From: a virus
Direction: 5' to 3' (one strand)
IMG/VR virus record: IMGVR_UViG_3300025005_000002
Coordinates: 96,001-160,000 of that record
Length of the DNA: 64,000 bases
The notes under the pieces are model-generated. The model was not told where the DNA came from. It searched no databases and saw only the letters and a program-made list of their open reading frames with translations. The first letter of the stretch is position 1. Each line of letters opens with the position of its first letter. The translations under genes were made by a program, and so were the position numbers. Of the stretch, positions 9,963 through 42,211 are shown in pieces.

Positions 9963-11144
9963 ATGTCTAAGGTAACAGTATTGGTTGGTGGGGCTTGGGG
10001 TAGTGAAGGAAAAGGTAAACTTGCGAATATTATCGCGGACTACTATAGTGTTCATGTTCGTACTGGTGCGCCAAATGCGGGGCATACAATTTACTATAAT
10101 GGGGATAAGGTTGTAATGCAAACTATCCCAGTTGGCTGGACCAATTTTGATGCCAAGTTAATAATTGGTGCTGGTGGGATGATTATACCAGAGCTTTTCT
10201 TTAAAGAGATTGCAATGCTTAAGAAATATGATCCTAATATTGAAAAGCGAGTTTTTATTCATCCAAATGTAGTGATTATTGAGCCTAAGCATATTTTGGC
10301 TGAGTATGGGCAGACTGAACCTTGTGATTATGCCCATAAGCCAATGGAGTGCCCACAGTGGCAGACAATTAAAGCAAATATTCAGAACGACCTAGTAGAT
10401 CCGTGCACTAAGTGTGATAAGTTGAGTGATAATGATCTTTGGAAGAAGGTTGGATCAACGCGTGAGGGTTGTGGTGCCGCACTCGCAGATAAGATTTGGC
10501 GTGGTGCTTCCCCAAGAGGGCTGGTCAAGTTGGCTGGTGAATGGCCCGGAATTAAGGAATTTTGTTGTGATACCACACTAATGATTAATGAGTTGATTGA
10601 TGATGGTGAATCAGTATTACTAGAGGGAACACAAGGGTCGGGTCTTTCATTGCATCATGGTACTTATCCGAAGACTACATCTCGGGATACTAATGCGGGG
10701 GGGTGGATTAGTGAAGCTGGGATTTCTCCATTGGTTGTCACTGACGTTATTGCTGCTATCCGCCCTTATCCTATTAGGGTGGCTGGTGATAGCGGTCCTA
10801 CGGGCTCACAGGAAATCACGTGGGCAGAAGTTGAGCGTAGAGCTGGTGTTCCAGAGGGAAGTTTTAAGGAAATTACGACAGTCACCAAGCGCGTTAGGCG
10901 GGTATTTGAATTTTCTAATGAGTGGTTTAAGAAAACGGCGATGATCAACCGTTTCACCGGTATTGGTTTAATGTTTGCTGATTACATCTCTGCCAAGGAT
11001 GCTGGTGTTAATAAGTGGGATGAACTTTCTGATGAGACCAAGGCTTGGGTGGCAGCATTTGAAGAGGAATACAATATTCCAATTGTTTGGATTTCAACAG
11101 GGCCATACAAAGAACAAACTATAATTAGGGAGGTATTTGAATAA
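9963..11144 (+). CDS. purZ: PurZ/PurZ0-type N6-succino-2-amino-dAMP synthetase (adenylosuccinate synthetase family)
   Basis: Short archaeal-type PurA fold (PNAGHT, LEGTQG, TTVTKRVRRV, STGP). GGAWGSEGKG has Ser14 where PurA has Asp; RPYPIRV replaces PurA KAY/FxTRV; MFAD keeps the guanine-binding Asp. Confidence 0.85.
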   Translation: MSKVTVLVGGAWGSEGKGKLANIIADYYSVHVRTGAPNAGHTIYYNGDKVVMQTIPVGWTNFDAKLIIGAGGMIIPELFFKEIAMLKKYDPNIEKRVFIHPNVVIIEPKHILAEYGQTEPCDYAHKPMECPQWQTIKANIQNDLVDPCTKCDKLSDNDLWKKVGSTREGCGAALADKIWRGASPRGLVKLAGEWPGIKEFCCDTTLMINELIDDGESVLLEGTQGSGLSLHHGTYPKTTSRDTNAGGWISEAGISPLVVTDVIAAIRPYPIRVAGDSGPTGSQEITWAEVERRAGVPEGSFKEITTVTKRVRRVFEFSNEWFKKTAMINRFTGIGLMFADYISAKDAGVNKWDELSDETKAWVAAFEEEYNIPIVWISTGPYKEQTIIREVFE

Positions 11145-11410
11145 TGGTGATGCTAAAATTAACACCGATTCCATTGGAAGAGCAAGCATGTTGTACAAAA
11201 GATGACGTTTTTGTGGTACAACACAATGCTGATGAAGATGCATGTTGTGGCCCAGTAAATGAGATCCTCGGTATTTTCACCAATGAAAAGGCAGCTAAGA
11301 AGTGTGCAGTGGCTGCCAAAAAGGCAGATGGGTATAAGGGTAAGGAAGTGAAGTTTCATTCGTATGATGTGGAATCATGGGTAGTAAGCGATAAGTTTAG
11401 GGAGTGGTGA
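11144..11410 (+). CDS. hypothetical protein coupled to purZ
   Basis: Start overlaps purZ stop; two vicinal CC pairs. Confidence 0.6.
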   Translation: MVMLKLTPIPLEEQACCTKDDVFVVQHNADEDACCGPVNEILGIFTNEKAAKKCAVAAKKADGYKGKEVKFHSYDVESWVVSDKFREW

Positions 11411-11682: not shown

Positions 11683-12972
11683 ATGGGCTGGAGAGACAGC
11701 AGATTTGGTTTTATGAAAATTGAGGATAATAAGAAGTACAGAGTTCGGATTTTAATGCCATTTAAATGTAAGAAGTGCGGTGTCAGTGGGTATTATCCTA
11801 ACTGGCCAAATGTGACGTGCACCTGTGGTGTTGGATCTGATGATTTAGTAGAAGCCGAGTGCGTATCAGGTTGGTACCATCGCGTTCCTAGTGTATCAGA
11901 CCCAGTGACACGTGCGACGATTCGTAAATATCGTACGTTCTTATGTAATATTCAGGGTGTGGCCCGTGGTGGAAAGCGTGAATGTCAAGCAGATCTCTGT
12001 GGTAAGTTGGACCCAATGTTTAGGATGCTTGCACCTAGGGATCAGAGGCGAAAGCGCAATGGTGTGGAGGTCGATAGCCATTTTGGGATTACCCCACAGC
12101 ATATAATCACGGTCTACAGCTATGATGAGCAGAAGCCAATGGTATTGAAATTTGGTAATGATCTTCGTAGTGAGTTTGTGCGGATTATCACTGCCAAGAA
12201 TTCTCTAGCTGGCCGGGATATTATCGTGTGGCGGGAGAAAAATAATAACCAGACTACATACAAGGCAGAAGCACAAGATCCTTCTTCTTTTTCAGAGAAT
12301 GTTGATTATGGTTCGATCTCGTTTGATGCAGTATTAGCTTTTGAAAATGTTGCCCCAGTGAAGGTGTGGGAATTTGTTTCTACTGGCAAAATCTCTGGTG
12401 AGGGGGGATCAAGTGCCCTTCCTTTTAGTGAACAATCTAAGGCCATTGCTGGTGGGTTCCCAACTCAAGGTGATATTGACAAATATAAGCAAGCTCGTTT
12501 GCTCGTGGTAGATGTTGGTAAGAGATATGTCGGCAGAACTTTTGGATATTTAATTGATAATAATGAGCCGGATTATTTTAAGTGGCTTATTAATATGTCT
12601 AATTCTCCAGAAGTGAAGGCTGGGGCTGAGTGGATCTCTAGTTTGTATACTACTGGTAATATCCATTTGTTACTAAAGGTCCTAAATGATCCCCCAGAGC
12701 CGAGTGGTAATGGTGTGGGGTCTAGTGGTGAACCAGAACCAGCAATGAAGACTTCATATGTTGGGGAGCCTAGTGGTATTACTCCACAGTCTACGCGTGT
12801 TGATGAGATTAACAAAATTTTTGAGGCAAAATTTGTCGGTAAATCAGATAAAGAAATGATTGATTTCCTATCTGGAGTTTATGGTCAATATAAAAATGTT
12901 ACTGAATTGTCAATTGCATCATGGTCAGAAGAGAAGCTTAATGCGCTGGTTGAAGCATTAGCGAAGATTTAA
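11683..12972 (+). CDS. gp32-like single-stranded DNA-binding protein with Zn insert and C-terminal extra domains
   Basis: FMKIEDNKKYRVRIL...WYHRV...GRDIIVWRE...TTYKAE pattern of gp32-like OB folds; position directly before recA; CKKC/CTC insert. Confidence 0.6.
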   Translation: MGWRDSRFGFMKIEDNKKYRVRILMPFKCKKCGVSGYYPNWPNVTCTCGVGSDDLVEAECVSGWYHRVPSVSDPVTRATIRKYRTFLCNIQGVARGGKRECQADLCGKLDPMFRMLAPRDQRRKRNGVEVDSHFGITPQHIITVYSYDEQKPMVLKFGNDLRSEFVRIITAKNSLAGRDIIVWREKNNNQTTYKAEAQDPSSFSENVDYGSISFDAVLAFENVAPVKVWEFVSTGKISGEGGSSALPFSEQSKAIAGGFPTQGDIDKYKQARLLVVDVGKRYVGRTFGYLIDNNEPDYFKWLINMSNSPEVKAGAEWISSLYTTGNIHLLLKVLNDPPEPSGNGVGSSGEPEPAMKTSYVGEPSGITPQSTRVDEINKIFEAKFVGKSDKEMIDFLSGVYGQYKNVTELSIASWSEEKLNALVEALAKI

Positions 12973-12976: not shown

Positions 12977-14062
12977 ATGGCAAAGAATGTAGTAGATGTA
13001 ATTAATTCTCGCTACGGGGCAACAACTATGATGTCTGGGGTGGACCGCACTGAGCGGTCCCCCATTCTTTTAGATTCTGGTGTATTAAGTTTAAATTTAG
13101 CTATTGGTACGAATGGGTTTCTTGGTGGTAGGATGGGGTTGGTGTGGGGAGAGAAACAATCGGGTAAGACCTTATTATCAACTTGTTTTGCTACGAGAGT
13201 CCAGAAAGATGGTGGTAAAGTGGCGTTCCTTGATGTTGAAGGGACATTTGATATGAAATTTGCTAAAAATTTGGGTATTGATCCTGCTAAACTTTTTATT
13301 ATCTCTTCTAAAGATGAAAGGGTAAATGAAAAGACTGGCGAATTGTTAGACCCATTGTTTGGCGAAGAATGGATTGATATCCTCATTGAGCTTATTAAAT
13401 CTAGGGAATACAATTTAATAATCTTAGATTCTATACCAGCATTGGTTCCAAGGGTTAAGATGGAAGCTGATACGGTAGATCAAAGCAAATTGAAGGCTGC
13501 ATCAGCACAGTTGATGGCAGAAATGCTTCCTAAAGTCAATTCATATTTAAATATGAATCCGTCGTGTTTTGTGTTGTTTATCTCGCAACAACGTTCAAAT
13601 CCAATGGTGACACATGGAAGCAATAGGAAGGCGGCTGGAGGGGATACAGCTGGGTTTTTCATATCTTATGAACTCTATGCTCGTAAGACTGAGAGTATTA
13701 GACGTAAAATTGCGCTTACACCGACTAAAATGGTTGAGGAAGAGGTCGCTATTCGGGTGGCGTATAGGGTTATGAAGAATAAGGTTGCCCGAGTGAATGA
13801 GCCAGCTGAGTTTATTGTTGATTTAGGTACTGGTGTAGACATAGTGGATGATACATTTGGTGTGGCTAAGCAATTTGGGATTATCAAGACTGCCGGTAGT
13901 TGGTTTTCATTTGAAGACAAGAAGGCAGCAGGTGAACAAAAGTTTAAAGAGTTAATGCAAGATCCCATAATTTTAGAGGAGATACGGGCTAAATGTGTTC
14001 AGGCACTAATTGGTCGTGATAATAATGGGCTAGTAGAAGAAGTATTGGTTGCTAACGAGTGA
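12977..14062 (+). CDS. recA: RecA/UvsX recombinase
   Basis: Walker A GEKQSGKT, FLDVEG, ILDSIPALVP, ISQQR, KNKVA, AGSWF. Confidence 0.95.
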   Translation: MAKNVVDVINSRYGATTMMSGVDRTERSPILLDSGVLSLNLAIGTNGFLGGRMGLVWGEKQSGKTLLSTCFATRVQKDGGKVAFLDVEGTFDMKFAKNLGIDPAKLFIISSKDERVNEKTGELLDPLFGEEWIDILIELIKSREYNLIILDSIPALVPRVKMEADTVDQSKLKAASAQLMAEMLPKVNSYLNMNPSCFVLFISQQRSNPMVTHGSNRKAAGGDTAGFFISYELYARKTESIRRKIALTPTKMVEEEVAIRVAYRVMKNKVARVNEPAEFIVDLGTGVDIVDDTFGVAKQFGIIKTAGSWFSFEDKKAAGEQKFKELMQDPIILEEIRAKCVQALIGRDNNGLVEEVLVANE

Positions 14063-15277: not shown

Positions 15278-15452
15278 TAAAGTAATATTGTGTGGGATAC
15301 AATTAATAACTGCGAATATTGCTGAATTACTTGCTACTAAATTTCCGGAGGGTACATTGGTTGATGTTACTTCTTTAAATGAGGCACTTACATATTTAAA
15401 TCTTACACTAGAAATGGAGATCCTTAAACTCGATGGATATAGTACGGATTAA
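15267..15452 (+). CDS. hypothetical protein
   Basis: Coupled ORF, start moved to ATG 15267. Confidence 0.55.
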   Translation: MKNDKVILCGIQLITANIAELLATKFPEGTLVDVTSLNEALTYLNLTLEMEILKLDGYSTD

Positions 15453-16857
15453 GGTTAATAATGTTTATGGTCAAATACTTGATCCGATCCCAGAGAAGGT
15501 TTTCAAGGAGTTAAGAGAAGATTGTTCATATATTTCTAAGCAACTTGCTTATTCCTCTAGGCAGTATGGGTACCACCCACATCCAACTTATAGATTTAGT
15601 AAAACAATGGTTTTTAGGGTTGGATTACTAAGTAGAATACGGGGTATTCTTAGATCTCATAGTGTTCTCGCACATATTTTAGAGGAAGAGTGTAGTGATG
15701 AAACTGTGGGGTCTCCTATTCCAATAAGTGATAATTTTAAATTGCGTGATTATCAATTTAGTGCGGTAGATGATATATTGAAACGTCGCAAGACTGCCCA
15801 CGAAATTGCTACTGGTGGTGGCAAGACAATTATTATGGGGGATGCGATAGCTAAGATTGGTTTAAAGACTACAGTGCTCACCAATAGTACCGTGCTAATG
15901 CATCAGACAGCGAAGTTACTTAAGCAGATGTTGGGCATAGAAATTGGTATGGTTGGTGACTCAATTTTTAATCCAAAAGATGTGACAGTTGCAATGGTAC
16001 AATCTTTGGAGGGGGTATATGACAAGGAGGATGCGTCATCAAATAAAGGTGACAAGATTTCGCTTATCGAAGGTACTAAGTTTCTTATTGTGGATGAGTG
16101 CCATAGAATTGCGGCAAAAACGATCTTTGATCTCTCAGCTAATTTTAAAGGTGCAAGATACGCAACGTTTTTTACGGCCACCATGCGTAGATTGGATGGA
16201 AAAGACCTAGATTTAGAGGCCGCATCAGGGCCAATTTATTATTCGGTACCGATGATAAAACTCATGGATGAGGGATGGTTGGTGAGACCAACGGTATATT
16301 GTTTAAAGGTCCCACCTAGGTATATTTCACCAAAAGATTCGCACTTAATAGATTGTAAAGTGTATAACACATTGCGGGATTTCCATATTGATAAATATCA
16401 AGAGAGGACAGAATTAATAGCAGAAGCCGCCACGCACATGGTCAATTATGGGCTTCAAGTTCTTATAAGTGTAAGACACATAGAACATGGAAACAATATT
16501 AAAAAATTATTACCTAGTGCAATAGAGATTTATGCTGAAACTAGTGGACAATCGGCATTATTTGATTCTATAAGAAATAATGAAAGTGGTGGGATTTTAA
16601 TCAGTACATTATGTAAAGAAGGGTGGGATATGCCTAATTGTTCTGGACTTATTATCGCATCAGATACACAAGATCCAGAACAATTAGTTGGCAGGATTGT
16701 TAGGTTACATCCGCACAAAACTTGTGCGATTGTTGTACATTTGGCAGATCAACACCCAATATTTAGACGACACCTAAAAAATAGTGAAAGAATATTTTAT
16801 AATAAGAATAAGTTTGATATTAAAAAGGTAGATTTTATAAATGAAATCAAGAAATGA
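15433..16857 (+). CDS. superfamily II DNA helicase (UvsW/Rad3-XPB-like)
   Basis: LRDYQ Q-motif, ATGGGKT Walker A, DECH, TAT, QLVGRIVR. Confidence 0.9.
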   Translation: MDIVRIKVNNVYGQILDPIPEKVFKELREDCSYISKQLAYSSRQYGYHPHPTYRFSKTMVFRVGLLSRIRGILRSHSVLAHILEEECSDETVGSPIPISDNFKLRDYQFSAVDDILKRRKTAHEIATGGGKTIIMGDAIAKIGLKTTVLTNSTVLMHQTAKLLKQMLGIEIGMVGDSIFNPKDVTVAMVQSLEGVYDKEDASSNKGDKISLIEGTKFLIVDECHRIAAKTIFDLSANFKGARYATFFTATMRRLDGKDLDLEAASGPIYYSVPMIKLMDEGWLVRPTVYCLKVPPRYISPKDSHLIDCKVYNTLRDFHIDKYQERTELIAEAATHMVNYGLQVLISVRHIEHGNNIKKLLPSAIEIYAETSGQSALFDSIRNNESGGILISTLCKEGWDMPNCSGLIIASDTQDPEQLVGRIVRLHPHKTCAIVVHLADQHPIFRRHLKNSERIFYNKNKFDIKKVDFINEIKK

Positions 16858-17482
16858 AATAATGAGAAATAATAGGAAGAGACGTAAAATAGAAAATAAA
16901 TGTGAAATTTGTAGTGCACCTAGGTACAAAGATAGTAGTAACTGTTTGAAATGTCTCAAGAAAAGACAAGAACATAATCAAAAATCATATGCCAAACAAA
17001 AAATAATGAAAAATAATGGGGTATGTATAAATGGTGATAATAGGCCACTATATACAAGTTGGTATTGTAAAGAGTGTTGGGATAAAAGATATGGCAAACA
17101 AAAAGATAATGTTAGAGATAGAATAAATAAGGGTCTGTGTGTGCATTGTGGTAATGTTGCCACTATCACTTTAACAGATCGGACATTTTGTGACATTTGC
17201 TGGTTTAAAAATCAAGCCAAAACTCACACTGGGTCACGCAAAAATTTTAAAGAGATTGAACAAATTTTACAAAAACAAGAATATAAATGTGTATATTCCA
17301 AAATTGAGTTACGATTAGGCGTAAACGCAAGTTTAGATCATATAATACCAATGTCTAGGGGCGGGGCAAGAGATATTAATAATATCCAATGGGTTGATAT
17401 TAATGTCAATTTAATGAAACACAAACTTACACACTCTGAATTTATATCTCTAATAAAAGAAATATACAAGAATGTTAAATGA
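16841..17482 (+). CDS. HNH endonuclease with N-terminal Cys-rich region
   Basis: SLDHIIPMSRGGARDINNIQWVDINVNLMK. Confidence 0.85.
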   Translation: MKSRNEIMRNNRKRRKIENKCEICSAPRYKDSSNCLKCLKKRQEHNQKSYAKQKIMKNNGVCINGDNRPLYTSWYCKECWDKRYGKQKDNVRDRINKGLCVHCGNVATITLTDRTFCDICWFKNQAKTHTGSRKNFKEIEQILQKQEYKCVYSKIELRLGVNASLDHIIPMSRGGARDINNIQWVDINVNLMKHKLTHSEFISLIKEIYKNVK

Positions 17483-18654: not shown

Positions 18655-18979
18655 TGCAGAAACTTTTCCCGTTGTTGTAGCGTCCATATATAATGATAAT
18701 ACTTCGTGTGGTACTACTGCTATGACTGTGAAGGTTTATCAAGGGACATGTAAATCTGGTGTTGTGTTTGCTACCGGGCCTGCGTCTTGTGGTACAACTA
18801 GTAATATTACCAATGGTAGTTTAATAGCGTGCGGTACTGGGTCACATAATTATTATGCCACCGCTACTGTTGCTGCTGGCGGGACAGAAGGTGATTGTTC
18901 TGGAGTCAAAGCATACGCGCCACCAGCGTGTTCAGCTACACCAGCTGCTCCATCTATTGGGAATATTATAAGGAAATAA
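18587..18979 (+). CDS. exported Cys/Thr/Gly-rich beta protein
   Basis: AAGGAG RBS, MRRILMVVALLIWTLGLGVTISNA signal peptide. Confidence 0.6.
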   Translation: MRRILMVVALLIWTLGLGVTISNAETFPVVVASIYNDNTSCGTTAMTVKVYQGTCKSGVVFATGPASCGTTSNITNGSLIACGTGSHNYYATATVAAGGTEGDCSGVKAYAPPACSATPAAPSIGNIIRK

Positions 18980-19269
18980 TGGCTGATACGTCAAATAATC
19001 CTTGGTATCCATCGCCAGAATTTCTGGCTCAAGCAGGGCATGTGTTGCTTGGTATGCTTGCTGTGCTAGCACCACGTGCCCTGTGGGATGGATGGATGCC
19101 AGCCGCTGCTGGTACAGCAATGGTTTATATTTATATGTTGGTTAAAGAATTTTCATATGATATTTATATAGAGAAAGAAACTGTTGCTATTGGGTGGAAG
19201 GATATTGCGTATTTATCGGTTGGTACTATTACTAGTTGGGGATTGTTAATATATTTAGGACGTCTATAA
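18979..19269 (+). CDS. small membrane protein (about 3 TM)
   Basis: Three hydrophobic stretches; start moved to ATG 18979. Confidence 0.55.
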   Translation: MADTSNNPWYPSPEFLAQAGHVLLGMLAVLAPRALWDGWMPAAAGTAMVYIYMLVKEFSYDIYIEKETVAIGWKDIAYLSVGTITSWGLLIYLGRL

Positions 19270-19517: not shown

Positions 19518-19978
19518 ATGAAAGAAAGGTACAAGAAGTCTAATGAAACAAAATACAAACAATTAGGTGTCCATGCAAGTACTGCTAGATATCAATTGAC
19601 CAAGATAATGTTGTTGCATTACGCCAAGGAATGTGGGGAAGATAAATGTTATAGATGTGGCTTACCAATAGAATCGCCAAATGATTTAAGTATTGATCAT
19701 AAAATACCGTGGTTACATAATAGCAAAGAATTGTTTTTTGATATAAATAATATCGCATGGTCACACAAGAAATGTAACAAAACCGACAGAACTGGGCGCA
19801 AACAAAGTAAAGAGGGATATTCATGGTGTATGACTTGCAAAAAGAATTAAAATTAGAGGCATTTAATAAAAAAGCAACACGTTGGAATGGTGTAGATTTT
19901 GAATGTAAGGTGTGTAAATCTAAAAGAATGAAAGAATTTCAACCAAGAAGAAAAGATAGAGGTAAAATATTTAAATAA
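19518..19978 (+). pseudogene. HNH endonuclease with frameshifted C-terminal zinc motif
   Basis: SIDHKIPW...NIAWSHKKCN in 19518-19850; the -1 frame after TGCAAAAAG completes CMTCKK-ELKLEAFNKKATRWNGVDFECKVC to TAA 19978. Confidence 0.7.
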
Positions 19979-31549: not shown

Positions 31550-32019
31550 GTGTTAGCACACCAATTAAAGATGTTATAGTTAGGCCCCTTATTGTGCACC
31601 ATGATGATCGTGGGTATTTAATGGAGATACTTAGAGATGATAGCCCAACATTTACCAAATTTGGGCAAGTGTATTTAGTTGGTGATGTCGCTAGGGGTAC
31701 TGTACGGGCTTTTCATAGACATAGTGAACTCGTTGATTGGTTCTTTATCTCTCATGGTGCTGCGAAATTCGTATTGGTAGATGGTCGAGAAGATTCTCCG
31801 ACATATCGCAATTATCAGGTCATTGTTACTGGAGATCGTAAACCAGCATGTATCACAGTCCCTCCTGGTGTGTGGCATGGATGGATGGCACTTACTGATG
31901 ATACACAGTTAATTAGTGTAGCTAGTAATTCGCATGATCCTTCTAAATTAGATGAGGAGAGAATCGCCCCAGATTACTTTAATTATATAAAGCGATTTTG
32001 GGACGTTGAATTTAAATGA
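31546..32019 (+). CDS. rmlC: dTDP-4-dehydrorhamnose 3,5-epimerase-like cupin
   Basis: HHDDRGYLME, RAFHRH, VLVDGREDSPTY, VPPGVWHG. Confidence 0.85.
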   Translation: MSVSTPIKDVIVRPLIVHHDDRGYLMEILRDDSPTFTKFGQVYLVGDVARGTVRAFHRHSELVDWFFISHGAAKFVLVDGREDSPTYRNYQVIVTGDRKPACITVPPGVWHGWMALTDDTQLISVASNSHDPSKLDEERIAPDYFNYIKRFWDVEFK

Positions 32020-32612: not shown

Positions 32613-33202
32613 AAAAGATACAATTTGGATCTGGTGGTAAGGATTGTTTTATTGATGGATGGGAAAATTATGATATAGATATAGATATTAGGAAGCCATT
32701 ACCATTTGAAAATAATAGTGTGGATTTTGTGATGGCTGAGCATCTAATTGAACATGTTACGCAGCATGACGCCTATTTATTTTTTTTGGAGTGCAGACGG
32801 ATTTTGAAATCTGGTGGTACGGCCAGGATTATAGTGCCAGATATCAAAAGAATTTATGAGAATTGTAATGAAGAATACCGTGGGTTTGTTAGGCGGTGGT
32901 GGCCCGGTGAAAAACAATGGTATAATTCGAGGTATTGGGAATATAAAGAGAAAAATTGTAAAAAAGATAATCTTACTAATAGTGTTATAGCTGAACAAAT
33001 GATATTTAATTTTGCCCATGTGTCATTTTGGACTGCTGATTTATTGGTTACTGCTTTAAATATTGTGGGATTTAAAACTATAATTGAAGGATATGGGAAG
33101 TCGAGTATCCCAGAATTAATCGGAGTTGATCGACATGGTATTGCAATTGGAATGGCCGCTACTATTATGGAGTCTATTGTAGTTGAGGCGACAAAGTCAT
33201 GA
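32609..33202 (+). CDS. class I SAM-dependent methyltransferase (type 11-like)
   Basis: IQFGSGG, PLPFENNSVDFVMAEHLIEH, RILKSGG...IVPD. Confidence 0.8.
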   Translation: MKKIQFGSGGKDCFIDGWENYDIDIDIRKPLPFENNSVDFVMAEHLIEHVTQHDAYLFFLECRRILKSGGTARIIVPDIKRIYENCNEEYRGFVRRWWPGEKQWYNSRYWEYKEKNCKKDNLTNSVIAEQMIFNFAHVSFWTADLLVTALNIVGFKTIIEGYGKSSIPELIGVDRHGIAIGMAATIMESIVVEATKS

Positions 33203-33954
33203 TTTATAGTTCTATAATGTTCTTTAATGAACTTGATTTGCTTGATTTAAAGATTGCAGAAGAATCTCCATATGTAGACAAGATTTACATTACGGAGTCA
33301 CCATTAACATTTACTGGCAATCAAAAACTACTTAATTTCCCGGTGGAAAAATATAAAGACAATGATAAAATAGTGTATTTAGTCACTCCAAAAGAGATAT
33401 ACAAAGATTGTAAGGTCGCATGGGATAGGGAATTTTTGCAGAGAAATTATGCACAGGCTATAATACCATTTAATGATGATGATGTCTGTTTTGTTACTGA
33501 TGCAGATGAAATAATTTGTGGGGATATGTTTCCCACTATACTTCATGGATTAAAAACATATCAATTTGTTGCGATGCATATGAAGTTTTGTATGTTTTAT
33601 ATTAATGTTGAAGTTGTAGGGCAGATTTGGGAGCCACCATTTGCTGCAAGGGGAAGGATGTGTAAGCAATATGCATTTCAAACTATGAGGAATAGAAAAG
33701 TAGGCACAAATAAAGTAATAGATAATTGTGGTAAGCATTTATCTTATTTAGGTGGTGAAGAAGCAATTAGGTTTAAATTAAGAAGTTATTCACATACAGA
33801 ATGTGCTGTCCCAGAACGCGTAGCGTCCATTATTAATGATTTTAATATGGTAGGATATAATAATAATAGATTAAAAATAATAGAGGTAAATAGGTTTTAT
33901 CCAAGGATCATATTAGATAATTTAGATAGGTGGGAAAAATATATAAAGAGGTGA
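33199..33954 (+). CDS. GT17-like glycosyltransferase (GT-A)
   Basis: FFNELDLL...ITES..TFTG, EFLQRN, VTDADEI (DxD), HLSYLGG. Confidence 0.8.
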   Translation: MIYSSIMFFNELDLLDLKIAEESPYVDKIYITESPLTFTGNQKLLNFPVEKYKDNDKIVYLVTPKEIYKDCKVAWDREFLQRNYAQAIIPFNDDDVCFVTDADEIICGDMFPTILHGLKTYQFVAMHMKFCMFYINVEVVGQIWEPPFAARGRMCKQYAFQTMRNRKVGTNKVIDNCGKHLSYLGGEEAIRFKLRSYSHTECAVPERVASIINDFNMVGYNNNRLKIIEVNRFYPRIILDNLDRWEKYIKR

Positions 33955-33957
33955 TTT

Positions 33958-34224
33958 ATGTTTAGTCATATTAAGGGATTGTGTAGGGTGTTTGGTGGTG
34001 TTGGTGAAGAAAGAGCGGAGAAAAGTAAGGTAGTAAATCACATAGTATTTGTAAAAAAAGGATCGGGGATTGATATGGTAAAACTCAAATCTATGGGGTT
34101 TCATGTTGTTGAAGGAGATTCAATAGAAGAGGGACGTGATTTCAAATTTATTGAAAGTGTACAAGTTACAACTACCTTCTATTCAAGAGAAGTAGAAGAG
34201 GAAGAAAAAGAAGGAGAAAGATAG
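33958..34224 (+). CDS. hypothetical protein
   Basis: AGAGGTG RBS. Confidence 0.6.
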   Translation: MFSHIKGLCRVFGGVGEERAEKSKVVNHIVFVKKGSGIDMVKLKSMGFHVVEGDSIEEGRDFKFIESVQVTTTFYSREVEEEEKEGER

Positions 34225-35258
34225 TGGTACTCGTCCTTGGTGGGGCAGGCTATGTTGGGTCAGTGCTTGTTGAGGCGTTGTTGGATCAGGGGTATTCGGT
34301 TAGAGTTTATGATAGGGAATATTATAATATAGATAATTCTAAATTTTCTAAGAAGGCAGATTATTGTTGGGGTGATGTAAGGGACATACGCCCAGAAATT
34401 TTTAATGGTATTGATGCAGTGATTAATCTTAGTGGCCTAAGTAATGATCCAACTGCAGAATATAATCCCGAAGCAAATAAGGAGATGAACACAGGGGCAA
34501 CCATTAGTTCAGCAAAACAAGCTATAGACCTTGGGATAATGAGGTATGTTTTTGCCTCTAGTTGTTCAGTATACTATAGAGATATTAGCGGTACTGATAT
34601 AGATGATGTTATATTGAATGAAAATGATAAAATTAGTCCAAAGGCTGCTTATTCTAAATCAAAATATGAGGCTGAACAAGGATTGTTACGTTTAGCCGGT
34701 GAATATAAAGGATTTTGTCCAGTTATTCTGAGAAAAGGGACTATATTTGGGTGGTCCCCAAGGATGCGCTATGATCTCGTTGTTAATACATTTGTCAAAG
34801 ACGCACTTAAAACTGGGAAGATTACTATTCATAACGGTGGTGAGATGTGGCGTCCTATGCTTGAAATTAATGATGCTACTAGGGCTTATATTGCATGTCT
34901 CCAGGCGAAGGCTCCGAAGGTTAGAGGTCAGATCTTTAATGTTGCGTACAAAAATTTTAGGGTATCTGAGATTGCGTTAAGGACCGTAGAGGCATTGAAG
35001 AAACTTGGGATTAATGTTGAGATCGAAATTCAAAATTCGCTTGGTAGTGTAAGATCATACAGAGTATCGCTAGAGAAGGCTCGTAATGTCCTTGGCATAA
35101 CACCATCAGTTACAATTGGTGAGTCGGTGGCCAATATGGTAAATAATATTAAGGCTGAAAAATACACAGATTTTGACAATCCTATATATTACAATATCCG
35201 TTGGCTCAAAACTCTCGAACATGCTAGTCGTATACTTATAAATGGGGAGGTATTTTAA
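34224..35258 (+). CDS. NAD-dependent sugar epimerase/dehydratase (extended SDR)
   Basis: GGAGYVG, NLSGLSND, ASSCSVY, YSKSK, WRPMLEIND. Confidence 0.9.
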   Translation: MVLVLGGAGYVGSVLVEALLDQGYSVRVYDREYYNIDNSKFSKKADYCWGDVRDIRPEIFNGIDAVINLSGLSNDPTAEYNPEANKEMNTGATISSAKQAIDLGIMRYVFASSCSVYYRDISGTDIDDVILNENDKISPKAAYSKSKYEAEQGLLRLAGEYKGFCPVILRKGTIFGWSPRMRYDLVVNTFVKDALKTGKITIHNGGEMWRPMLEINDATRAYIACLQAKAPKVRGQIFNVAYKNFRVSEIALRTVEALKKLGINVEIEIQNSLGSVRSYRVSLEKARNVLGITPSVTIGESVANMVNNIKAEKYTDFDNPIYYNIRWLKTLEHASRILINGEVF

Positions 35259-35561
35259 ATGATGATAATGAGTCATTGGGACTATCGTGTAGTTAGGAAA
35301 AATGTTTATATGGGTAAAACAATCAGTCCAGAAGTTCAGTATGCAATATATGAAACGTATTATAATGATGAAGGCGAGCCTATTATGATTACTACTGATT
35401 ATATGTCACCATATGGTGAGACACCAGAGGAATTGAAGAGTGATTTGGAGAAAATGGTAGCAGCGCTAGATAAACCGGTGTTGAATTGGGGAGATTTTAA
35501 AAATAAAGAGATTGAGGTACCTACAAATGACAAAGTCATTGGCGGTGGTGATAGGCAGTAA
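35259..35561 (+). CDS. hypothetical phage protein
   Basis: WDYRVV...PYGETPEELKSDLEKM pattern common in phage small proteins. Confidence 0.6.
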   Translation: MMIMSHWDYRVVRKNVYMGKTISPEVQYAIYETYYNDEGEPIMITTDYMSPYGETPEELKSDLEKMVAALDKPVLNWGDFKNKEIEVPTNDKVIGGGDRQ

Positions 35562-36402
35562 CGGACAATTTGGGTCAGATATTGTTAAGGTTTTAAATGG
35601 GAAATTTACGGTTAAGGCATTAACTCATAAAGATATTGATATTACCAAAAAGGCGTGTTATGATAGTATCGTTGCGCTTGAGCCTCAATATGTAATCAAT
35701 ACTGCGGCATTTCATAATTTAAAGGCATGTGAAGAAGAACCAGATAAAGCATTTTTAGTGAATGCCTGGGGTGCGTTAAATTTAGCTAGGGCTTGTAATG
35801 ATATAGGGGCCACACTGATTCATACCAGTACGGACCATGTGTTTGATGGTGAAACTGATCAGCCATATTTTGAGGATAGTAAGACTTGTCCGGTTAGTTC
35901 ATATGGTAGGTCCAAGTTATTGGGTGAACAATTGGTAACTGCTTATATAAATAAGCATTATATATTGAGGGTGTCAACTTTATATGGATATGTACCACCA
36001 AGTGGTAAACCATGGAATTTTATTGATATGGTTGTTGGGAAAGCGATTAAGAAAGAGAAGATGACCATTGTTAATATGCTTTATTCTTCACCAACGTTCA
36101 CAGCCAATGCAGCTAATAAATTACTTGCCATATTAACCAGAAAATTACCATATGGTGTATACCATTGTTCTGATGGTGGGGTTACATCTTTTTATGATTT
36201 GGCAGTTTTTATATGTAAATATTTAAATTTGGAGGTAGATATAGTCCCACTCACAGAACCACTAGATAGTGTGCCACGACCAAAATATTGTATTATGGGT
36301 GGTGCAAAATTGGATGGTTTTGGTATACCATCTAGGCCATGGCAGGCATGTATAGCGGTTTATTTAAATAATAAGTATCCGGAGTATGCTCCTAAACGAT
36401 AA
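35527..36402 (+). CDS. rmlD: dTDP-4-dehydrorhamnose reductase-like SDR
   Basis: GSNGQFG, INTAAF, STDHVFDG, YGRSKLLGE, SPT. Confidence 0.88.
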   Translation: MTKSLAVVIGSNGQFGSDIVKVLNGKFTVKALTHKDIDITKKACYDSIVALEPQYVINTAAFHNLKACEEEPDKAFLVNAWGALNLARACNDIGATLIHTSTDHVFDGETDQPYFEDSKTCPVSSYGRSKLLGEQLVTAYINKHYILRVSTLYGYVPPSGKPWNFIDMVVGKAIKKEKMTIVNMLYSSPTFTANAANKLLAILTRKLPYGVYHCSDGGVTSFYDLAVFICKYLNLEVDIVPLTEPLDSVPRPKYCIMGGAKLDGFGIPSRPWQACIAVYLNNKYPEYAPKR

Positions 36403-36429
36403 AAAAGCAAATATTTTATCGGGGAGCTA

Positions 36430-36984
36430 ATGTCGCCAGCTAAAATTAAGCAAAAATGTGTTGAATGTGGTGTTGTATTTGAAAGATCTAAGTTTAATCC
36501 ATATTTGGATCGATGTGAAAAACACAGGATATCAAATAAAAAAGTAAGGGTACAAGTTGAAGGACCAGTTAAGAAACTGGCAAAGAAGACGAAAAAAGAG
36601 GAACCTCAACAAATAATATTGCCAGTTCCATCATTAACTAATTTTAAACCAATTGTTGTTACCATAGAAAAGGAGAAGATTTATTTACATCTTTTATCTC
36701 GTGGATGGCAATTATCAACCAGTAATAAATTATTTAAGAAGACAGACAAAGTAAACGTCGTAGCTACTCTTGGGTCAGATGGATCACAATCACAAAAGTT
36801 TACTGCTAGTTTTTGGGGTGGCGATAAATTTAGTGGGTTTGATGGTAGTTTGTCTATAGTGGAGAGGGCACAGTTGAAAAAGTTACCATCAGAAATAACT
36901 AATGATTTAGAAGATATTATAAATTTAATTTGGCCGATTGGAGAGAATGATGAGAAAGAGTGCGGAGAAAAGAAAAGAATATAA
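36430..36984 (+). CDS. hypothetical protein with N-terminal zinc ribbon
   Basis: CVECG...RCEKH. Confidence 0.6.
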   Translation: MSPAKIKQKCVECGVVFERSKFNPYLDRCEKHRISNKKVRVQVEGPVKKLAKKTKKEEPQQIILPVPSLTNFKPIVVTIEKEKIYLHLLSRGWQLSTSNKLFKKTDKVNVVATLGSDGSQSQKFTASFWGGDKFSGFDGSLSIVERAQLKKLPSEITNDLEDIINLIWPIGENDEKECGEKKRI

Positions 36985-37624
36985 TAAGAAGGCTTGGCCC
37001 AAATATATTAATCGGATTGGAAAAGAGGAGAGGTCTAAACGGCAGATAGTGTCGTATATTAAAAATAGAGATAAAGTACAGGCAAGGCATAAAATAAGAA
37101 GGGTAGAGATCTGTGAGTTTGTGGACGAGCAAAAGAAAGGAAAACAGTGTGCCTATTGTGGCAATGTGGATTGGAGGGTATTAGAATTCCATCATCTGGG
37201 CGATAAAGATATGTGGGTTAGTATTATGCGGAAGTACGCATGGGGCAGGGATAAAATCTTGGCTGAGATTGCTAAGTGTGTTATATTGTGCACCAATTGT
37301 CATAAGATTCTTCACCACGAAGAGAGACAAACAGAACAGGTAGCGAGTGGCTGGAAATGCAGTAGGGCCAGAAGGGCCGCTGCGTATAAACTAGTTGATG
37401 ATTATAAGAAGAAGAGTAAGTGTATCAAGTGTGGAAATAATGATTGGCGTGTGTTAGAATTTAATCATAGGGACCCAGCGACCAAAAGTGGTGATATTGG
37501 TCGTATGCGTAGTGACGGGTGTACCAAGAAACTTGTGATAGAGATGGCGCAATGCGATATGTACTGCGGTAACTGTCATAAACTATATCATTTAGGAGAA
37601 TGTGGTGATGCAGAAAAGGACTAA
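36938..37624 (+). CDS. protein with two tandem HNH domains
   Basis: CAYCGNVDWRVLEFHH...LCTNCHKILH and CIKCGNNDWRVLEFNH...YCGNCHKLYH. Confidence 0.8.
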   Translation: MERMMRKSAEKRKEYNKKAWPKYINRIGKEERSKRQIVSYIKNRDKVQARHKIRRVEICEFVDEQKKGKQCAYCGNVDWRVLEFHHLGDKDMWVSIMRKYAWGRDKILAEIAKCVILCTNCHKILHHEERQTEQVASGWKCSRARRAAAYKLVDDYKKKSKCIKCGNNDWRVLEFNHRDPATKSGDIGRMRSDGCTKKLVIEMAQCDMYCGNCHKLYHLGECGDAEKD

Positions 37625-38675
37625 TAAGAGGAAAATATTATATGTTCTCGCCGACAGCCAGGGATGTGGACATTACCGTTGTCTTCTCCCGGCTTGGTAT
37701 TTGCAGATGATAACAGACACATATCATACTACATGTTCCTGGGAGTTGTCATTAGCTGACATGTATTGTTATGATATGATTATATTTCAGCGGCATTTTG
37801 AAGATAAGGTTAAACCGTTATGGGACGCAGCCAAAGATTCTGGAGTAATTATGGTATATGAAACGGATGATGACTTTTTTAATATCCGCCCAATAAACCC
37901 TGCGTATAAGTTTATACACAATAATGAAAAACAAAATGTTAGAAATTTTATGAAGATGGCAGATGCTGTAGTGGTATCTACTGAGCACCTAAAGAATCAG
38001 ATGAAGTGTTATAATAAGAATATTTATGTGATACCAAATATGGTTGAAGTGAATAAGGATTTTATTGCTCAACGGCCATATGATTACAGTAAAGAAATTC
38101 GTATCGTATATGCTGGTGGACCATCGCATGGTGATGATTTTAGGGGGATGGAGGCGTCTATAGTTAAATTACTTGATGAATTTGGTGATAAAATTAAAGT
38201 GTTTTTTATGGGGTGGGTACCAGAATGTTTGAAAGAAGAGAAACGTATCATACAAATACCTTGGCTAAAGATTGGTGAGTATCTCCATACTTTGGCTAGT
38301 ATACAGCCACATATTGGTATTTGTCCTCTGGAAGAAAATATTTTTAATAGAAGTAAAAGTAATATGAAATGGCTTGAATATACAGCAGTGGGTGCGGTTA
38401 CTGTTGCTTCCAATGTGTTACCATACCAAGAGGTTATTACTTCTGGGATTAATGGTGTGTTAGTTGATGGTCAAAGGTCACGTGATTGGTGCCATGCATT
38501 GGAGGATTTAATCAATAATCCAGATAAGATTAAACCAATGGTAACTGGTGCAGTACAAGTTATGGAAGAGAAACAATTAAATATTGTAACTAGTCCAATA
38601 CTTTCGAATGTCATTGGTACGATATTTAATAATGTGGCCGCAATGAGGGAACAAAAGAGAAAGAAGGCATCTTAG
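37602..38675 (+). CDS. GT-B fold glycosyltransferase (GT4-like)
   Basis: GCGHYR, YETDDD, AGGPSH, IGICPL...NRSKSNMKWLEY. Confidence 0.8.
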   Translation: MVMQKRTNKRKILYVLADSQGCGHYRCLLPAWYLQMITDTYHTTCSWELSLADMYCYDMIIFQRHFEDKVKPLWDAAKDSGVIMVYETDDDFFNIRPINPAYKFIHNNEKQNVRNFMKMADAVVVSTEHLKNQMKCYNKNIYVIPNMVEVNKDFIAQRPYDYSKEIRIVYAGGPSHGDDFRGMEASIVKLLDEFGDKIKVFFMGWVPECLKEEKRIIQIPWLKIGEYLHTLASIQPHIGICPLEENIFNRSKSNMKWLEYTAVGAVTVASNVLPYQEVITSGINGVLVDGQRSRDWCHALEDLINNPDKIKPMVTGAVQVMEEKQLNIVTSPILSNVIGTIFNNVAAMREQKRKKAS

Positions 38676-41600
38676 TGCAAAATTTTATACATACCCACTG
38701 CCATAGTTCATATTCACTAATGGATGGGGTCACTTCCCCGGCTAAGATGGTAGCACATGCTAAGAAACTTGGGTTCCAGGGTTTGTGTCTCACCGATCAT
38801 GGTAATATCTTTGGTGCCATACCATTTTATGAGGCATGTAAAGAACAAGGGTTGAAATGTGGTATTGGTATTGAGGGGTATGTGTCTAAGGAGAGGAAAT
38901 TTGAAGGACGGGAGAAACTTGGACATATAGTGTTAATAGCCAAAAATATGGTGGGGTATAAGAATCTTATTAAGATTGTATCAGATGCCTTTGAAAATTT
39001 TTATTATAAACCTAGAATGTCGTTGGATGTTATTGCTAGGTTTAGTGAGGGGATTATTTGTTCAACTGCTTGTTTGCATGGATTGATTGCTAGGGATGTG
39101 TATGATGATAAGGCTGATGAAGCGGTTGCAACATTAAAACGATTGCGGTCTATATTTAATAATGATCTTTATGTTGAGGTGATGGAAACGGGGGTTAAGG
39201 GGCAAGGTGGTTGGGCAGATCTGATGTTAGAAATGGCGGAGAAATTTAAGATTAAACCAATTATTACTAATGATATACACTATTTAAATAAGGATGATGC
39301 TGAAATACAAGATGCAATGGTTGCATTACAATTTGGAACGCATATTTTGGATAGGAAACGTGGTGTTGTTTATGGTGACTGGCCAGACGATGTGAGTAAA
39401 CCATCAATTTTGAATGCTGAATATTATATGAAGACTCGTGGTGAGTTGGAGAAATTTGCTTCCAATATCCCAAAAGTAGCATTTGATAATACAATGGAGA
39501 TTTGTGAGAAATTAGAAGATTATAATATTGAGTTTAAGACTGGTAAATATATGCCAGAACTGCCTAAGTCGTTTTTACCGGCAAACATAGAGACTAATGA
39601 TGAATACTTAAAGACGCTTGCTTATGATGGGCTAAAAAGTAAAGGTATAGATACACAAGAGTATAGAGATAGGTTGGAGTATGAGTTAGGTGTAATATCA
39701 AAACTTAATTTTTCTTCATATTTTTTAATCCTTGGTATTGTTATAAAGGAGGTACGTAAGCGTGGTATTTTAGTTGGACCAGGAAGAGGTTCGGCAGGAG
39801 GCAGTTTAACTTTATTTGCTCTTGGGATATCGGGTGTAGATCCAATAAAATACAAGCTTATGTTTGAGCGGTTCTTAAACTCTAGTCGTATTGATCTGCC
39901 TGATGTTGATATAGATTTTGAGCAACGAAGGAGACCAGAGGTTATTGATATTGTACAGCAAATTTTTGGAGCTGATAAAGTTTCTAAGCTCGCAATATTT
40001 AACAATATGACAACCAAATTGGCGATTAGAGAAGCTTTGCGGGCCATTGAACCAAATCGTAAAAGAGTAGATGAGCTTATAAAGGATCTTGGTGGTTTAG
40101 ATGAACTGGAGCCTAAAGAGTTATTTGAGGAGACTGCAAAGAGAGAAGAAGAAGGTGTAATGGTTGTCATGGATAAGATGCGGGCATTTAAATCCCCTCG
40201 AGCGGGTAAGAGTTGGTATGATTTCGCTGCTGGGCTGTCTGGCAATCCTAAGGCTGTATCGATCCATGCATCTGGGGTTATAATTTCTAAGGATAGGTTT
40301 AGTGATATAGTACCAACATTTAGGGTGAATAGAGAGTCAGAGACGGCATTGATGTGTGATATGTATGTATCGTCAAAACTTGGGTTGGTTAAATTTGATT
40401 TGCTTGGTTTGACTACCCTTGATATTATTAAGATAACTTGCGAAATGATTAAAGAGAACCATGGCATAGATATTGATCCTTATGCCTTGCCGTTTGATGA
40501 CCAAAAAACGTTTGCGTTATTTCAGGCTGGGAATACATGTAGAGTATTTCAAGCTGAAGGAGATGGGTTCACCAATATGATGAAGGGATTGGTCCCAACC
40601 GAGTTCGAACATATTATTGCTATGAATGCCCTTTATAGGCCAGGGGCTTTGGCTTATGATGAAGCGATTAAAATGTCAGCCGCTGAAAAATATATAAGGA
40701 CTAAAAATGGTTTAATACCCCCAACCAAGATTGATCCATGTATTGATGATGTACTTGCACCTACGCACTATATGATGCTTTTCCAAGAGCAGATTATGGA
40801 AATTGCACGGCGTGTAGCTGGGTATACTATGGCAGAAGCCGATCACCTACGTAAGGTTATTGGTAAGAAATTGGTTAAAGAGATTGATGATGAAGGTGAC
40901 AAGTTTGTCGCAGGTGCTATTAAAAACGGAAAGAGCAAGGAATTTGCTGAATATATTTTTGGCCTTATTAAGCCATCAGCAAGGTATCTCTGGAATAGAG
41001 CACATTCTGCAGCATATGGAGTCATCACTTACATCACGGCATACTTAAAGGCTCATTATCCCGTAGAATTTATGTGCGCTAACCTTATAATGACTGATGC
41101 TGATCAAGCAAAGGTTATCATTGCTGATTGTAAGAAACTTGGAATCAAAATTTCAAGACCTGATGTTAATAAGTCTAAACTGTCATTTTCTGCTTCTGGT
41201 GATACTATATACATAGGTTTGTCTTCTATCAAAGGCATCGGTGAGACTTCTGCTGGTGCATTAATCTCTGAACGCAATAAAAATGGTGAATATAGATCAT
41301 TTGCCGATTTTATTAATAGAAATCGTAGTGTGCCATCTAATCAAGTTACTCAATTAGCATTGGCTGGTGGATTCTCATTTGATAAGAGTATAAATAGGAA
41401 GGATATAATAGAGAATATAGCAGAGATTAAGAAGTATATACGAGTAAAGAGCCTTTCTCCAAAGGTTGTAATGAGTAGATATACTACTGCTAGTGAGTTT
41501 GATAAGCCAGCATATAAAAAGGCAATAGAAACTGGGTTCCTTGGTTTGGAGTTGCCTGATGATATAATTTCGGTCCCATGGTTTAAGAAGCAAGTTGAGT

Positions 41601-42211
41601 ATGATTTGTCGGAGATATTAGAGATTGAATCGGAAGTAATAGGGCTTTTAGATGTTGATTCGGTGTTAGATATATATCAAGCATTAGCCGATTCGGTTGG
41701 GGCTATTTCACTTACCAAGGCATTAACATTACCAACACAATCAGTTGTTTATATTTATGGAATTAATGGTGGGGTGGAGGTTATTTATCCAAAGAAAGAT
41801 CAAACATGGAGTAAATTTGGGTCGGTGGCTGTGATTGATAGGGAGGGGCTCCATCAGAGGAATATAAATATTAATACAGAAGATTTGGATGATAATGTGG
41901 TGAGTGGGGTTAATTATGGGTGTATTAAGACTTCTCTTAACAAGAAGTTTATCCCAATTATTGTAAAGGGTATTGTAAAATATAGTAATAAGCGTGGTAA
42001 GGGGTTAACTTTGGTAGGGAAGCCCACATTGCCACAGCAAGGGATTAAGGTTAAAAATATTGGATTTATGAAGGCCCCATCTATGATGGATAAGATAATT
42101 ATTAGTAAAGTTTGTGGAGACCTTGGGAGTATCGATATACTTACTAATGATATAATTAAATCGCTCGTGGGTATAGTGGGACCGACAATATTTGCGAATA
42201 TACGGGAGTAA
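38675..42211 (+). CDS. dnaE: DNA polymerase III alpha subunit (family C)
   Basis: PHP domain HTHCHSSYSLMDG, TDHG; GPGRGSAGGS, PDVDIDF, HASGV, KFDLLGL, NALYRPG, FQEQIM, NRAHS. Confidence 0.95.
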   Translation: MQNFIHTHCHSSYSLMDGVTSPAKMVAHAKKLGFQGLCLTDHGNIFGAIPFYEACKEQGLKCGIGIEGYVSKERKFEGREKLGHIVLIAKNMVGYKNLIKIVSDAFENFYYKPRMSLDVIARFSEGIICSTACLHGLIARDVYDDKADEAVATLKRLRSIFNNDLYVEVMETGVKGQGGWADLMLEMAEKFKIKPIITNDIHYLNKDDAEIQDAMVALQFGTHILDRKRGVVYGDWPDDVSKPSILNAEYYMKTRGELEKFASNIPKVAFDNTMEICEKLEDYNIEFKTGKYMPELPKSFLPANIETNDEYLKTLAYDGLKSKGIDTQEYRDRLEYELGVISKLNFSSYFLILGIVIKEVRKRGILVGPGRGSAGGSLTLFALGISGVDPIKYKLMFERFLNSSRIDLPDVDIDFEQRRRPEVIDIVQQIFGADKVSKLAIFNNMTTKLAIREALRAIEPNRKRVDELIKDLGGLDELEPKELFEETAKREEEGVMVVMDKMRAFKSPRAGKSWYDFAAGLSGNPKAVSIHASGVIISKDRFSDIVPTFRVNRESETALMCDMYVSSKLGLVKFDLLGLTTLDIIKITCEMIKENHGIDIDPYALPFDDQKTFALFQAGNTCRVFQAEGDGFTNMMKGLVPTEFEHIIAMNALYRPGALAYDEAIKMSAAEKYIRTKNGLIPPTKIDPCIDDVLAPTHYMMLFQEQIMEIARRVAGYTMAEADHLRKVIGKKLVKEIDDEGDKFVAGAIKNGKSKEFAEYIFGLIKPSARYLWNRAHSAAYGVITYITAYLKAHYPVEFMCANLIMTDADQAKVIIADCKKLGIKISRPDVNKSKLSFSASGDTIYIGLSSIKGIGETSAGALISERNKNGEYRSFADFINRNRSVPSNQVTQLALAGGFSFDKSINRKDIIENIAEIKKYIRVKSLSPKVVMSRYTTASEFDKPAYKKAIETGFLGLELPDDIISVPWFKKQVEYDLSEILEIESEVIGLLDVDSVLDIYQALADSVGAISLTKALTLPTQSVVYIYGINGGVEVIYPKKDQTWSKFGSVAVIDREGLHQRNININTEDLDDNVVSGVNYGCIKTSLNKKFIPIIVKGIVKYSNKRGKGLTLVGKPTLPQQGIKVKNIGFMKAPSMMDKIIISKVCGDLGSIDILTNDIIKSLVGIVGPTIFANIRE

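Follow-up and report, generated by a model that had tools for sequence, protein, structure and literature searches.

A PurZ-type synthetase, putative DutZ/DmtZ partner genes and a DnaE replicase in a large phage genome: a candidate pathway to 2-aminoadenine DNA

The PurZ-type synthetase and the nucleotide cassette

The stretch of viral DNA analysed here, hereafter the window, comprises 64,000 nucleotides (bases 96001-160000) of the IMG/VR record IMGVR_UViG_3300025005_000002, which is 178,008 bp long and has a CheckV completeness of 92%. The G+C content of the window is approximately 36%, and practically every long open reading frame (ORF) lies on the + strand. It carries the genes of a possible system for the replacement of adenine by 2-aminoadenine (Z): a PurZ-type synthetase, a cassette encoding a nucleotide kinase and proteins resembling DmtZ and DutZ, and DnaE, a family C replicase. 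The phages for which Z genomes have been described are small siphoviruses and podoviruses that infect Pseudomonadota, Cyanobacteriota and Actinomycetota, and their polymerase is either DpoZ, which belongs to family A, or PrimPol.

The synthetase is encoded by the ORF at 9963-11144 (+ strand, 393 aa), and its classification as PurZ-type, and more precisely as PurZ0-like, was based on Pfam, PHROG, sequence motifs and an AlphaFold2 (AF2) model. The protein is a homologue of adenylosuccinate synthetase (Pfam PF00709, 182 bits), and it matches the PHROG family phrog_1211, '2-aminooxy adenylosuccinate synthetase' (1.3e-67). Its P-loop reads GAWGSEGKGK, which places Ser14 at the position of the catalytic Asp13 of PurA, and RPYPIRVAGDSG is found at the site of the PurA sequence TRVGxGPFPTE. 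The substrate loop, RPYPIRVAGDSGP, aligns with VIRPFPIRVAGNSGE of PurZ0 from Gordonia phage Archimedes (7vf6), reads KAYTTRVGAGPFPTE in PurA, and is unlike the loop of Pyrococcus horikoshii PurA. It follows the PurZ substrate-loop pattern R-x-[YF]-P-I-R-V-A-G-x-S-G, and the PurZ signature is common to all 120 of the best database relatives that match the motif pattern. The MFAD segment has kept the Asp that corresponds to Asp333 of E. coli PurA, as in PurZ0; the equivalent residue is Asn in the PurZ of phiVC8 and in Bacillus phage vB_BpsS-140, and Gln in the PurZ of S-2L. Because this Asp of the PurA KxD segment is retained, the synthetase is predicted to take a phosphate donor that is probably of the GTP type. 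The AF2 model has a predicted local distance difference test score (pLDDT) of 87.8. It includes a Cys-rich insertion of about 45 residues (window 10314-10418, approximately aa 118-152; pLDDT 64-81) with four Cys in the arrangement C-x10-C ... C-x2-C, which is probably a small zinc-binding module. The insertion is common to the metagenomic PurZ-like clades P0011, P0013, P0015 and P0080, and is missing from PurZ, PurZ0 and PurA.

How PurZ0 phages clear adenine without DatZ or MazZ was described by Poubanne et al. (NAR 2026, PMC12884076). According to that study, DutZ is related to dUTPases but hydrolyses both dATP and dGTP, whereas DmtZ is an enzyme of the nucleoside deoxyribosyltransferase (NDT) superfamily that destroys dAMP and can pass deoxyribose 5-phosphate to the Z base. 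The dutZ gene was present in 98 of 98 PurZ0 genomes and dmtZ in 85 of 98, and the two were frequently fused. Mutagenesis of the DmtZ of phage Ghobes indicated that the triad Tyr6/Asn77/Glu103 and Asp12 are essential, Pro57 being a further residue that matters, and Asp12 was proposed to read the adenine 6-amino group (PMC12884076).

In the window, a cassette of three genes, all on the + strand, sits directly after the DnaG-DnaB primase-helicase and is followed by a class II ribonucleotide reductase. The first gene (25339-25944) encodes a nucleoside monophosphate kinase of the adenylate-kinase family, which, judged by family match and synteny, is a candidate dZMP (or dNMP) kinase; its position in the cassette suggests that it may phosphorylate dZMP, an adenine analogue. 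The second gene (25945-26427) encodes a DmtZ-like NDT-superfamily protein of 160 aa, identified by alignment, residues and fold. The match to NDT is weak, with the Pfam NDT models below cut-off, and tblastn against phage records returned no match for this protein; the homology to DmtZ is seen in pairwise, profile and fold comparisons. The similarity is weak but consistent, with pairwise E values of 2e-4 (Wayne) and 9e-6 (Hiyaa) and a tblastn value of 6e-6 (Archimedes gp53), and the alignment to the DmtZ domains of three phage proteins, Wayne gp52, Hiyaa gp69 and Archimedes gp53, starts at the very N-terminus of the protein. In an alignment with Wayne, Hiyaa and Archimedes, its residues Tyr6, Val11, Asp12, Pro37, Asn56 and Glu81 correspond to Tyr6, Val11, Asp12, Pro57, Asn77 and Glu103 of Ghobes DmtZ, the Ghobes numbering being taken from the paper and the Ghobes sequence itself lying outside the alignment. 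Y6, G9, D12, P37, N56 and E81 are among the residues that are invariant in an alignment of 14 DmtZ-like homologues. The AF2 model (pLDDT 82.6, predicted template modelling score 0.79) has NDTs, MilB and DNPH1 as its top Foldseek matches (E approximately 1e-5, TM 0.6-0.7), which are likewise structural neighbours of the published DmtZ (PMC12884076). A weak match to Archimedes gp51 (E = 0.003) was found at 18952-19146, where the ORFs have no Pfam or PHROG family.

The third gene (26396-26893) encodes a DutZ-like protein of the dUTPase family (PF00692, 89 bits), listed at 165 aa, with a start that is probably Met12 at 26429, 2 nt past the upstream stop codon. It is the only dUTPase-family gene in the 178-kb record. 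Of the 1,839 phage records that match this protein, the best 30 are all PurZ0-bearing actinophages with 37-41% identity, the closest relatives being those of Streptomyces phages Galactica, Keanu, Hiyaa and Spocter, Microbacterium phage Milani and Wayne-like Arthrobacter phages; the DutZ of Archimedes (gp55) matched the gene by tblastn with 1e-19 and 41% identity. When a library of 1.84 billion proteins was searched with the Dut-like protein and the 150 nearest cluster representatives were inspected, a DmtZ-like domain was fused to the dUTPase domain in 23 of them, N-terminally in 19 and C-terminally in four. A first-pass annotation of this DNA had seen no DatZ, MazZ or DpoZ, which holds, but it had overlooked the dUTPase-like gene and the adjacent NDT-like gene within the very interval that it covered. 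Its suggestion that other enzymes deplete dATP in a different kind of Z system is supported, except that these enzymes are not unknown ones: they match the DutZ/DmtZ pair (25945-26893).

The DnaE replicase and its recurrence with PurZ

The replicase gene (38675-42211, + strand) encodes a DnaE of 1178 aa, the alpha subunit of a family C replicase, as assigned by its Pfam domains and structural relatives. The protein is complete, with PHP, DNA_pol3_alpha, finger and HHH_6 domains, and its best solved relatives are the Pol III alpha subunit of Taq (2hpi, 1.9e-158) and DnaE1 of M. tuberculosis (5lew); PolC is only remotely similar. The first-pass annotation had named this intact DnaE as the only polymerase of the window, and it is also the sole DNA polymerase detected in the 178-kb record, over which all absence searches were run. 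Pfam models for HD, YfbR-like, MazG, DUF550, DUF5664, PolA (PF00476), PolB (PF00136) and Prim-Pol (PF09250) gave no match in this record, and neither did tblastn searches with DatZ of phiVC8 and S-2L, MazZ of S-2L, two PrimPol, four DpoZ and two phage PurB proteins. As positive controls, the YfbR-like and DUF550 models found DatZ and MazZ in phiVC8 and S-2L. The reported lack of an HD-domain dATPase, a MazG-like gene and a PolA-type gene therefore holds for the whole record, and a search of the rest of the genome for HD, MazG, DUF550 and PolA genes, which the same annotation had proposed, found no datZ, mazZ or dpoZ. A location of these genes outside the window could thus be rejected for the 92% of the genome covered. 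The literature that we could search, which left key subscription papers outside our reach, holds no mention of PurZ paired with DnaE or polymerase III, and the only polymerases that it names for Z phages are PolA (DpoZ) and PrimPol. In a paper from 2026, dZ phages are said to rely on PolI-family or PrimPol enzymes, which is called a critical feature (PMC12944874).

A profile scan of IMG/VR yielded at least 57 PurZ-like loci, and a polymerase census was taken over the 41 contigs of at least 20 kb. PolA was present in 24 of these contigs, DnaE in five, and both in none. A dUTPase-family gene was found in 36 of the 41, including all five contigs with PurZ and DnaE. The latter (G001, G002, G003, G005 and G006) measure 103-178 kb, and two are rated complete. 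With these five contigs and the cultured phage vB_BpsS-140, the pairing of PurZ with DnaE, for which a survey had been proposed in the first-pass annotation, is real and recurrent. Searches of these six genomes for PolA, HD/YfbR-like and DUF550 found nothing, and MazG gave no match above cut-off. G001, G003, G005 and G006 keep the order primase-helicase, kinase, DmtZ-like and DutZ-like, of which G002 and vB_BpsS-140 have variants, and the order PurZ, conserved ORF and RecA is kept in G001, G003, G005, G006 and vB_BpsS-140. The adenylate-kinase-family gene is conserved in the same five genomes, where it immediately precedes the DmtZ/DutZ-like genes, in vB_BpsS-140 the dut gene. A PurA homologue is present in just two, G001 and G003, of 48 DnaE contigs of at least 30 kb. 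In G002, the Dut-like ORF (L081:18347-19240) is 297 aa long; its N-terminal extension shows no match to the DmtZ-like profile and may be a different fusion partner.

To place the replicase, a FastTree phylogeny was built from the polymerase core of 80 phage DnaEs, in which branch supports are local only. A single clade of 16 rows (support 97) holds all seven PurZ-linked DnaEs, and none is found among the 64 DnaEs elsewhere. Two complete genomes without PurZ, G073 and G062, are members of this clade as well. A DmtZ-like gene was not found in either of them, and in G073 a dUTPase was not found either; within the clade, the DmtZ-like gene is confined to PurZ-bearing genomes or fragments thereof. 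Because the PurZ-less G073 and G062 do not have the DmtZ-like gene, the helper genes follow PurZ and not the DnaE lineage.

The clustering could mean that the genome is Z-substituted and that DnaE itself prefers Z, as a family C counterpart of DpoZ that co-evolved with PurZ, for example with a PHP domain that excises A:T termini. All nine PHP metal-ligand positions are indeed intact in the DnaE of the window, G001, G002 and G003, and the selectivity of DpoZ has been linked to its exonuclease (PMC8599892). Nevertheless, we regard a Z-preferring DnaE as unlikely. Apart from the PurZ-less members of the clade, the PHP domain is degenerate in the DnaE of G005 and G006, although both bear PurZ, and therefore PHP-based editing cannot be general. 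Moreover, most polymerases do not discriminate A from Z according to the authors of PMC8342488, and the clustering may only mirror the shared descent of one lineage with a syntenic replication module. It is likewise improbable, in our estimate, that the PurZ-linked DnaEs are a family C Z-replicase lineage that prefers dZTP or excises misinserted A by means of PHP, that the kinase is a dedicated dZMP kinase rejecting dAMP, and that together they form a third, self-sufficient and independently assembled Z machinery in large phages, including phages of Bacillota.

The only cultured member with this architecture is vB_BpsS-140 (MH884512.1; DSM 29700), and we found no analysis of it as a Z phage in the literature. 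It shares with the window the order purZ-like, conserved ORF, recA, helicase, dnaG-dnaB, adk, dut and DnaE, whereas its DmtZ-like ORF is located elsewhere in the genome (L007:19611-20096) and not in the cassette. It differs in being a 55-kb siphovirus, and its synthetase is only 31% identical, is without the Cys insertion and carries Asn (ATP-type) at the site of donor specificity. The DnaE of this phage is divided over two overlapping ORFs, a PHP part of 363 aa and a core of 852 aa (L007:38885-42492; MH884512.1 48884-52491). These ORFs are unannotated in the GenBank record, while the authors of the phage list dnaE_1 and dnaE_2; the gene may truly be split, or the arrangement may stem from a frameshift or a PacBio indel.

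Predicted mechanism and alternative readings

Genes, diagnostic residues, fold, synteny and co-occurrence were observed directly. Based on these sequence comparisons, we consider it fairly probable that the phage replaces adenine by Z using a PurZ0/DutZ/DmtZ-type module together with a DnaE replicase; every enzymatic activity in the following scheme, like the composition of the DNA, is what we infer. The DutZ-like trimer would hydrolyse dATP and dGTP to dAMP and dGMP, and the DmtZ-like enzyme would destroy dAMP to give adenine and deoxyribose 5-phosphate, and may shift the sugar phosphate to a free Z base. The PurZ-type synthetase would then join dGMP and aspartate, probably with GTP as phosphate donor, after which host PurB would free dZMP, the host lyase being needed because no phage PurB was found. 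The phage adenylate-kinase-like kinase and host kinases would take dZMP to dZTP, and DnaE would put Z opposite T mainly since dATP is gone. Selectivity of DnaE would not be required for this, and the intact PHP domain of the window DnaE could contribute proofreading. In S-2L, PrimPol is non-selective and the exclusion of adenine stems from the removal of dATP. In E. coli carrying datZ-mazZ-purZ, cellular polymerases placed Z in the chromosome (3.9%) and in plasmids (12%) (PMC8342488). The most economical account is probably that the published PurZ0/DutZ/DmtZ pathway feeds a DnaE without selectivity, which draws on a pool depleted of dATP.

Several observations weigh against adenine replacement. 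By score, the PurZ-like protein is closer to an archaeal PurA (5k7x, 9e-52) than to PurZ0 (7vf6, 5e-42), and the tree puts it in a separate, large and uncharacterised clade, apart from the PurZ and PurZ0 reference clades. In trees without the Asp-type archaeal PurA, it falls on the PurZ-like side of E. coli PurA, with cellular Ser-type paralogues interleaved. The assignment of the Dut-like protein to DutZ derives from similarity rank and domain fusions. Since the record is 92% complete, a gene may have been missed; the CheckV-complete G005 and G006 show the same absences. Finally, it is common for cellular genomes to have a short Ser13-type PurA paralogue alongside a normal PurA. For this comparison, one genome per prokaryotic species was scanned, and 80 of the 403 stretches that encode relatives were examined. 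The P-loop motif was found in 72 of these 80 cellular relatives and had Ser in all 72, one of the two search patterns having required Ser, and a canonical PurA was additionally present in 14 of 17 tested genomes with a Ser-type paralogue. The paralogues (L171-L250) carry the motif PIRVAGxSGP, or PIRVAGxQAG in Acidobacteriota, and group in taxon-coherent clades of Dehalococcoidia, Acidobacteriota and DPANN archaea. As far as sequences can tell, the Ser signature is by itself not a marker of Z-DNA or proof of dGMP use, because such paralogues are widespread in cells, and the argument for Z thus depends on its occurrence together with the DutZ-like and DmtZ-like genes.

The cellular paralogue family, which has no known function, would suit a module that merely biases purine pools or gives a partial and variable replacement of A by Z, or else a PurZ-like protein with another substrate next to a Dut-like protein that is an ordinary dUTPase for the ThyX pathway. 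A conventional dUTPase role is available, because the window encodes the thymidylate synthase ThyX for ordinary dTMP supply (48304-48981, + strand) and a dCMP deaminase-family protein (2041-2466, + strand), both identified by family search, and Wayne DutZ still favours dUTP (PMC12884076). However, a Dut-like or DmtZ-like ORF within 3 kb was found at none of the 80 examined cellular Ser-type loci, compared to the dUTPase-family gene in 36 of 41 viral contigs. The DmtZ-like gene moreover retains Asp12, the proposed reader of the adenine 6-amino group, and in the DnaE clade it goes with PurZ, as described above. On balance, we doubt that pool bias, partial replacement or another substrate accounts for the module.

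The restriction digests of vB_BpsS-140 reported by its authors bear on both possibilities. DraI, PstI, HindIII and BamHI did not cut, KpnI cut poorly and EcoRI cut completely. In 45 of the 55 kb we counted 19 DraI, four PstI, six HindIII, three BamHI, three KpnI and 20 EcoRI sites. Because sites for the non-cutting enzymes are present in the sequence, the DNA appears to be protected at sites with A:T pairs, which fits Z, and the resistance to four of six enzymes speaks against mere pool bias or partial replacement. The sensitivity to EcoRI points the other way, and calls for caution because DNA made by PCR with dZ is described as resistant or partially resistant to this enzyme (PMC12944874). 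The substitution in vB_BpsS-140 may therefore be partial, or the modification a different one.

The remaining genes of the replication module, also on the + strand, start with the conserved ORF between purZ and recA (11683-12972), which is kept in G001, G003, G005, G006 and vB_BpsS-140 and was assigned by synteny; it encodes a protein of 429 aa with a Cys-rich N-terminal segment and has no Pfam or PHROG family. It is followed by a RecA-family recombinase (12977-14062) and an SF2 (ResIII/DEAD) helicase (15433-16857), both identified by Pfam. Family searches identified the DnaG-type primase fused to a DnaB-type helicase (21991-24630) and the class II-type ribonucleotide reductase (26948-30508), which contains an intein (Intein_splicing, with about 420 aa inserted). 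A second intein-containing gene is the 984-aa ORF at 50893-53847, with Hint and LAGLIDADG domains. Genes resembling HNH or endonuclease VII-type homing endonucleases are found in the replication module at 16841-17482, 19518-19850, 24668-25387 and 36938-37624. Upstream of the module, a radical SAM protein of 480 aa (566-2008) adjoins the dCMP-deaminase-family gene.

Interleaved with the replication genes is a sugar-nucleotide pathway (31546-38675 and 46146-48063), comprising a dTDP-sugar epimerase-like protein, TylF-like and other methyltransferases, GT17, GT1 and GT2 glycosyltransferases, NAD epimerase and RmlD. The first-pass annotation had raised the option that dZ serves as an acceptor for further modification, and the location of a dTDP-sugar-type pathway, methyltransferases and three glycosyltransferases among the replication genes, in one case immediately before dnaE, would agree with decoration of dZ or another base to give a hypermodified purine. 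This option found no support, and we consider it very improbable. The genes are shared only with G001, which is 81-84% identical, and the corresponding regions of G002, G003, G005, G006 and vB_BpsS-140 do not have them; for this reason a role of the cluster in the Z system was rejected. Glycosylation of the virion or the host surface would be an equally good role for such genes, and to our knowledge there is no precedent for glycosylation of Z.

Comparison with known Z systems

If the proposed replacement of adenine by Z holds, Z-DNA would extend to phages of 100-180 kb, to a bacterial-type family C replicase and, via vB_BpsS-140, to a Bacillus host. Nature would then have set up the experiment that shows whether clearing the pool is by itself enough for a Pol III-type enzyme to substitute completely, and the phage kinase is nominated as a missing step of the pathway. 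Since vB_BpsS-140 is held in a public collection, a cultured phage is open to direct chemistry. The literature that we could search mentions neither a DnaE partner for PurZ nor a genome of this size, and it has no counterpart to the added kinase or to the connection with a phage of Bacillus.

The logic of the predicted pathway, in which dZTP is made from dGMP and dATP is removed, is the same as that of PurZ/DatZ/MazZ phages with DpoZ (Vibrio phage phiVC8 and Acinetobacter phage SH-Ab 15497) or PrimPol (cyanophage S-2L), and S-2L is a precedent for a polymerase that needs no selectivity. In contrast to the phiVC8/S-2L type, the window has no HD/YfbR-like dATPase and no MazG/DUF550 gene, its polymerase belongs to family C, and its synthetase combines SEGKG with Asp (GTP-type) instead of STGKG with Asn or Gln (ATP-type).

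The likeness to the PurZ0/DutZ/DmtZ actinophages (Wayne, Ghobes, Archimedes and Hiyaa; PMC12884076) goes further. Both have a Ser13-type synthetase that retains the Asp of the GTP segment, adjacent dUTPase-like and NDT-like genes, in the window in the same order as in the Wayne/Hiyaa fusion, and the DmtZ catalytic residues, and both lack DatZ and MazZ. The differences are that the actinophages replicate with PolA (DpoZ-1) and the window phage has DnaE and no PrimPol, that its genome is 178 kb with 36% G+C versus 43-83 kb with high GC, and that its synthetase belongs to a separate metagenomic clade with the four-Cys insertion. In addition, its purZ lies 15 kb away from dutZ/dmtZ, its cassette contains an adenylate-kinase-like kinase, and DUF5664 and a phage PurB are absent. 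From the sequence relationships, the nucleotide module would thus be a distant member of the system published in 2026 (PMC12884076), and its pairing with a family C replicase would be the unusual part.

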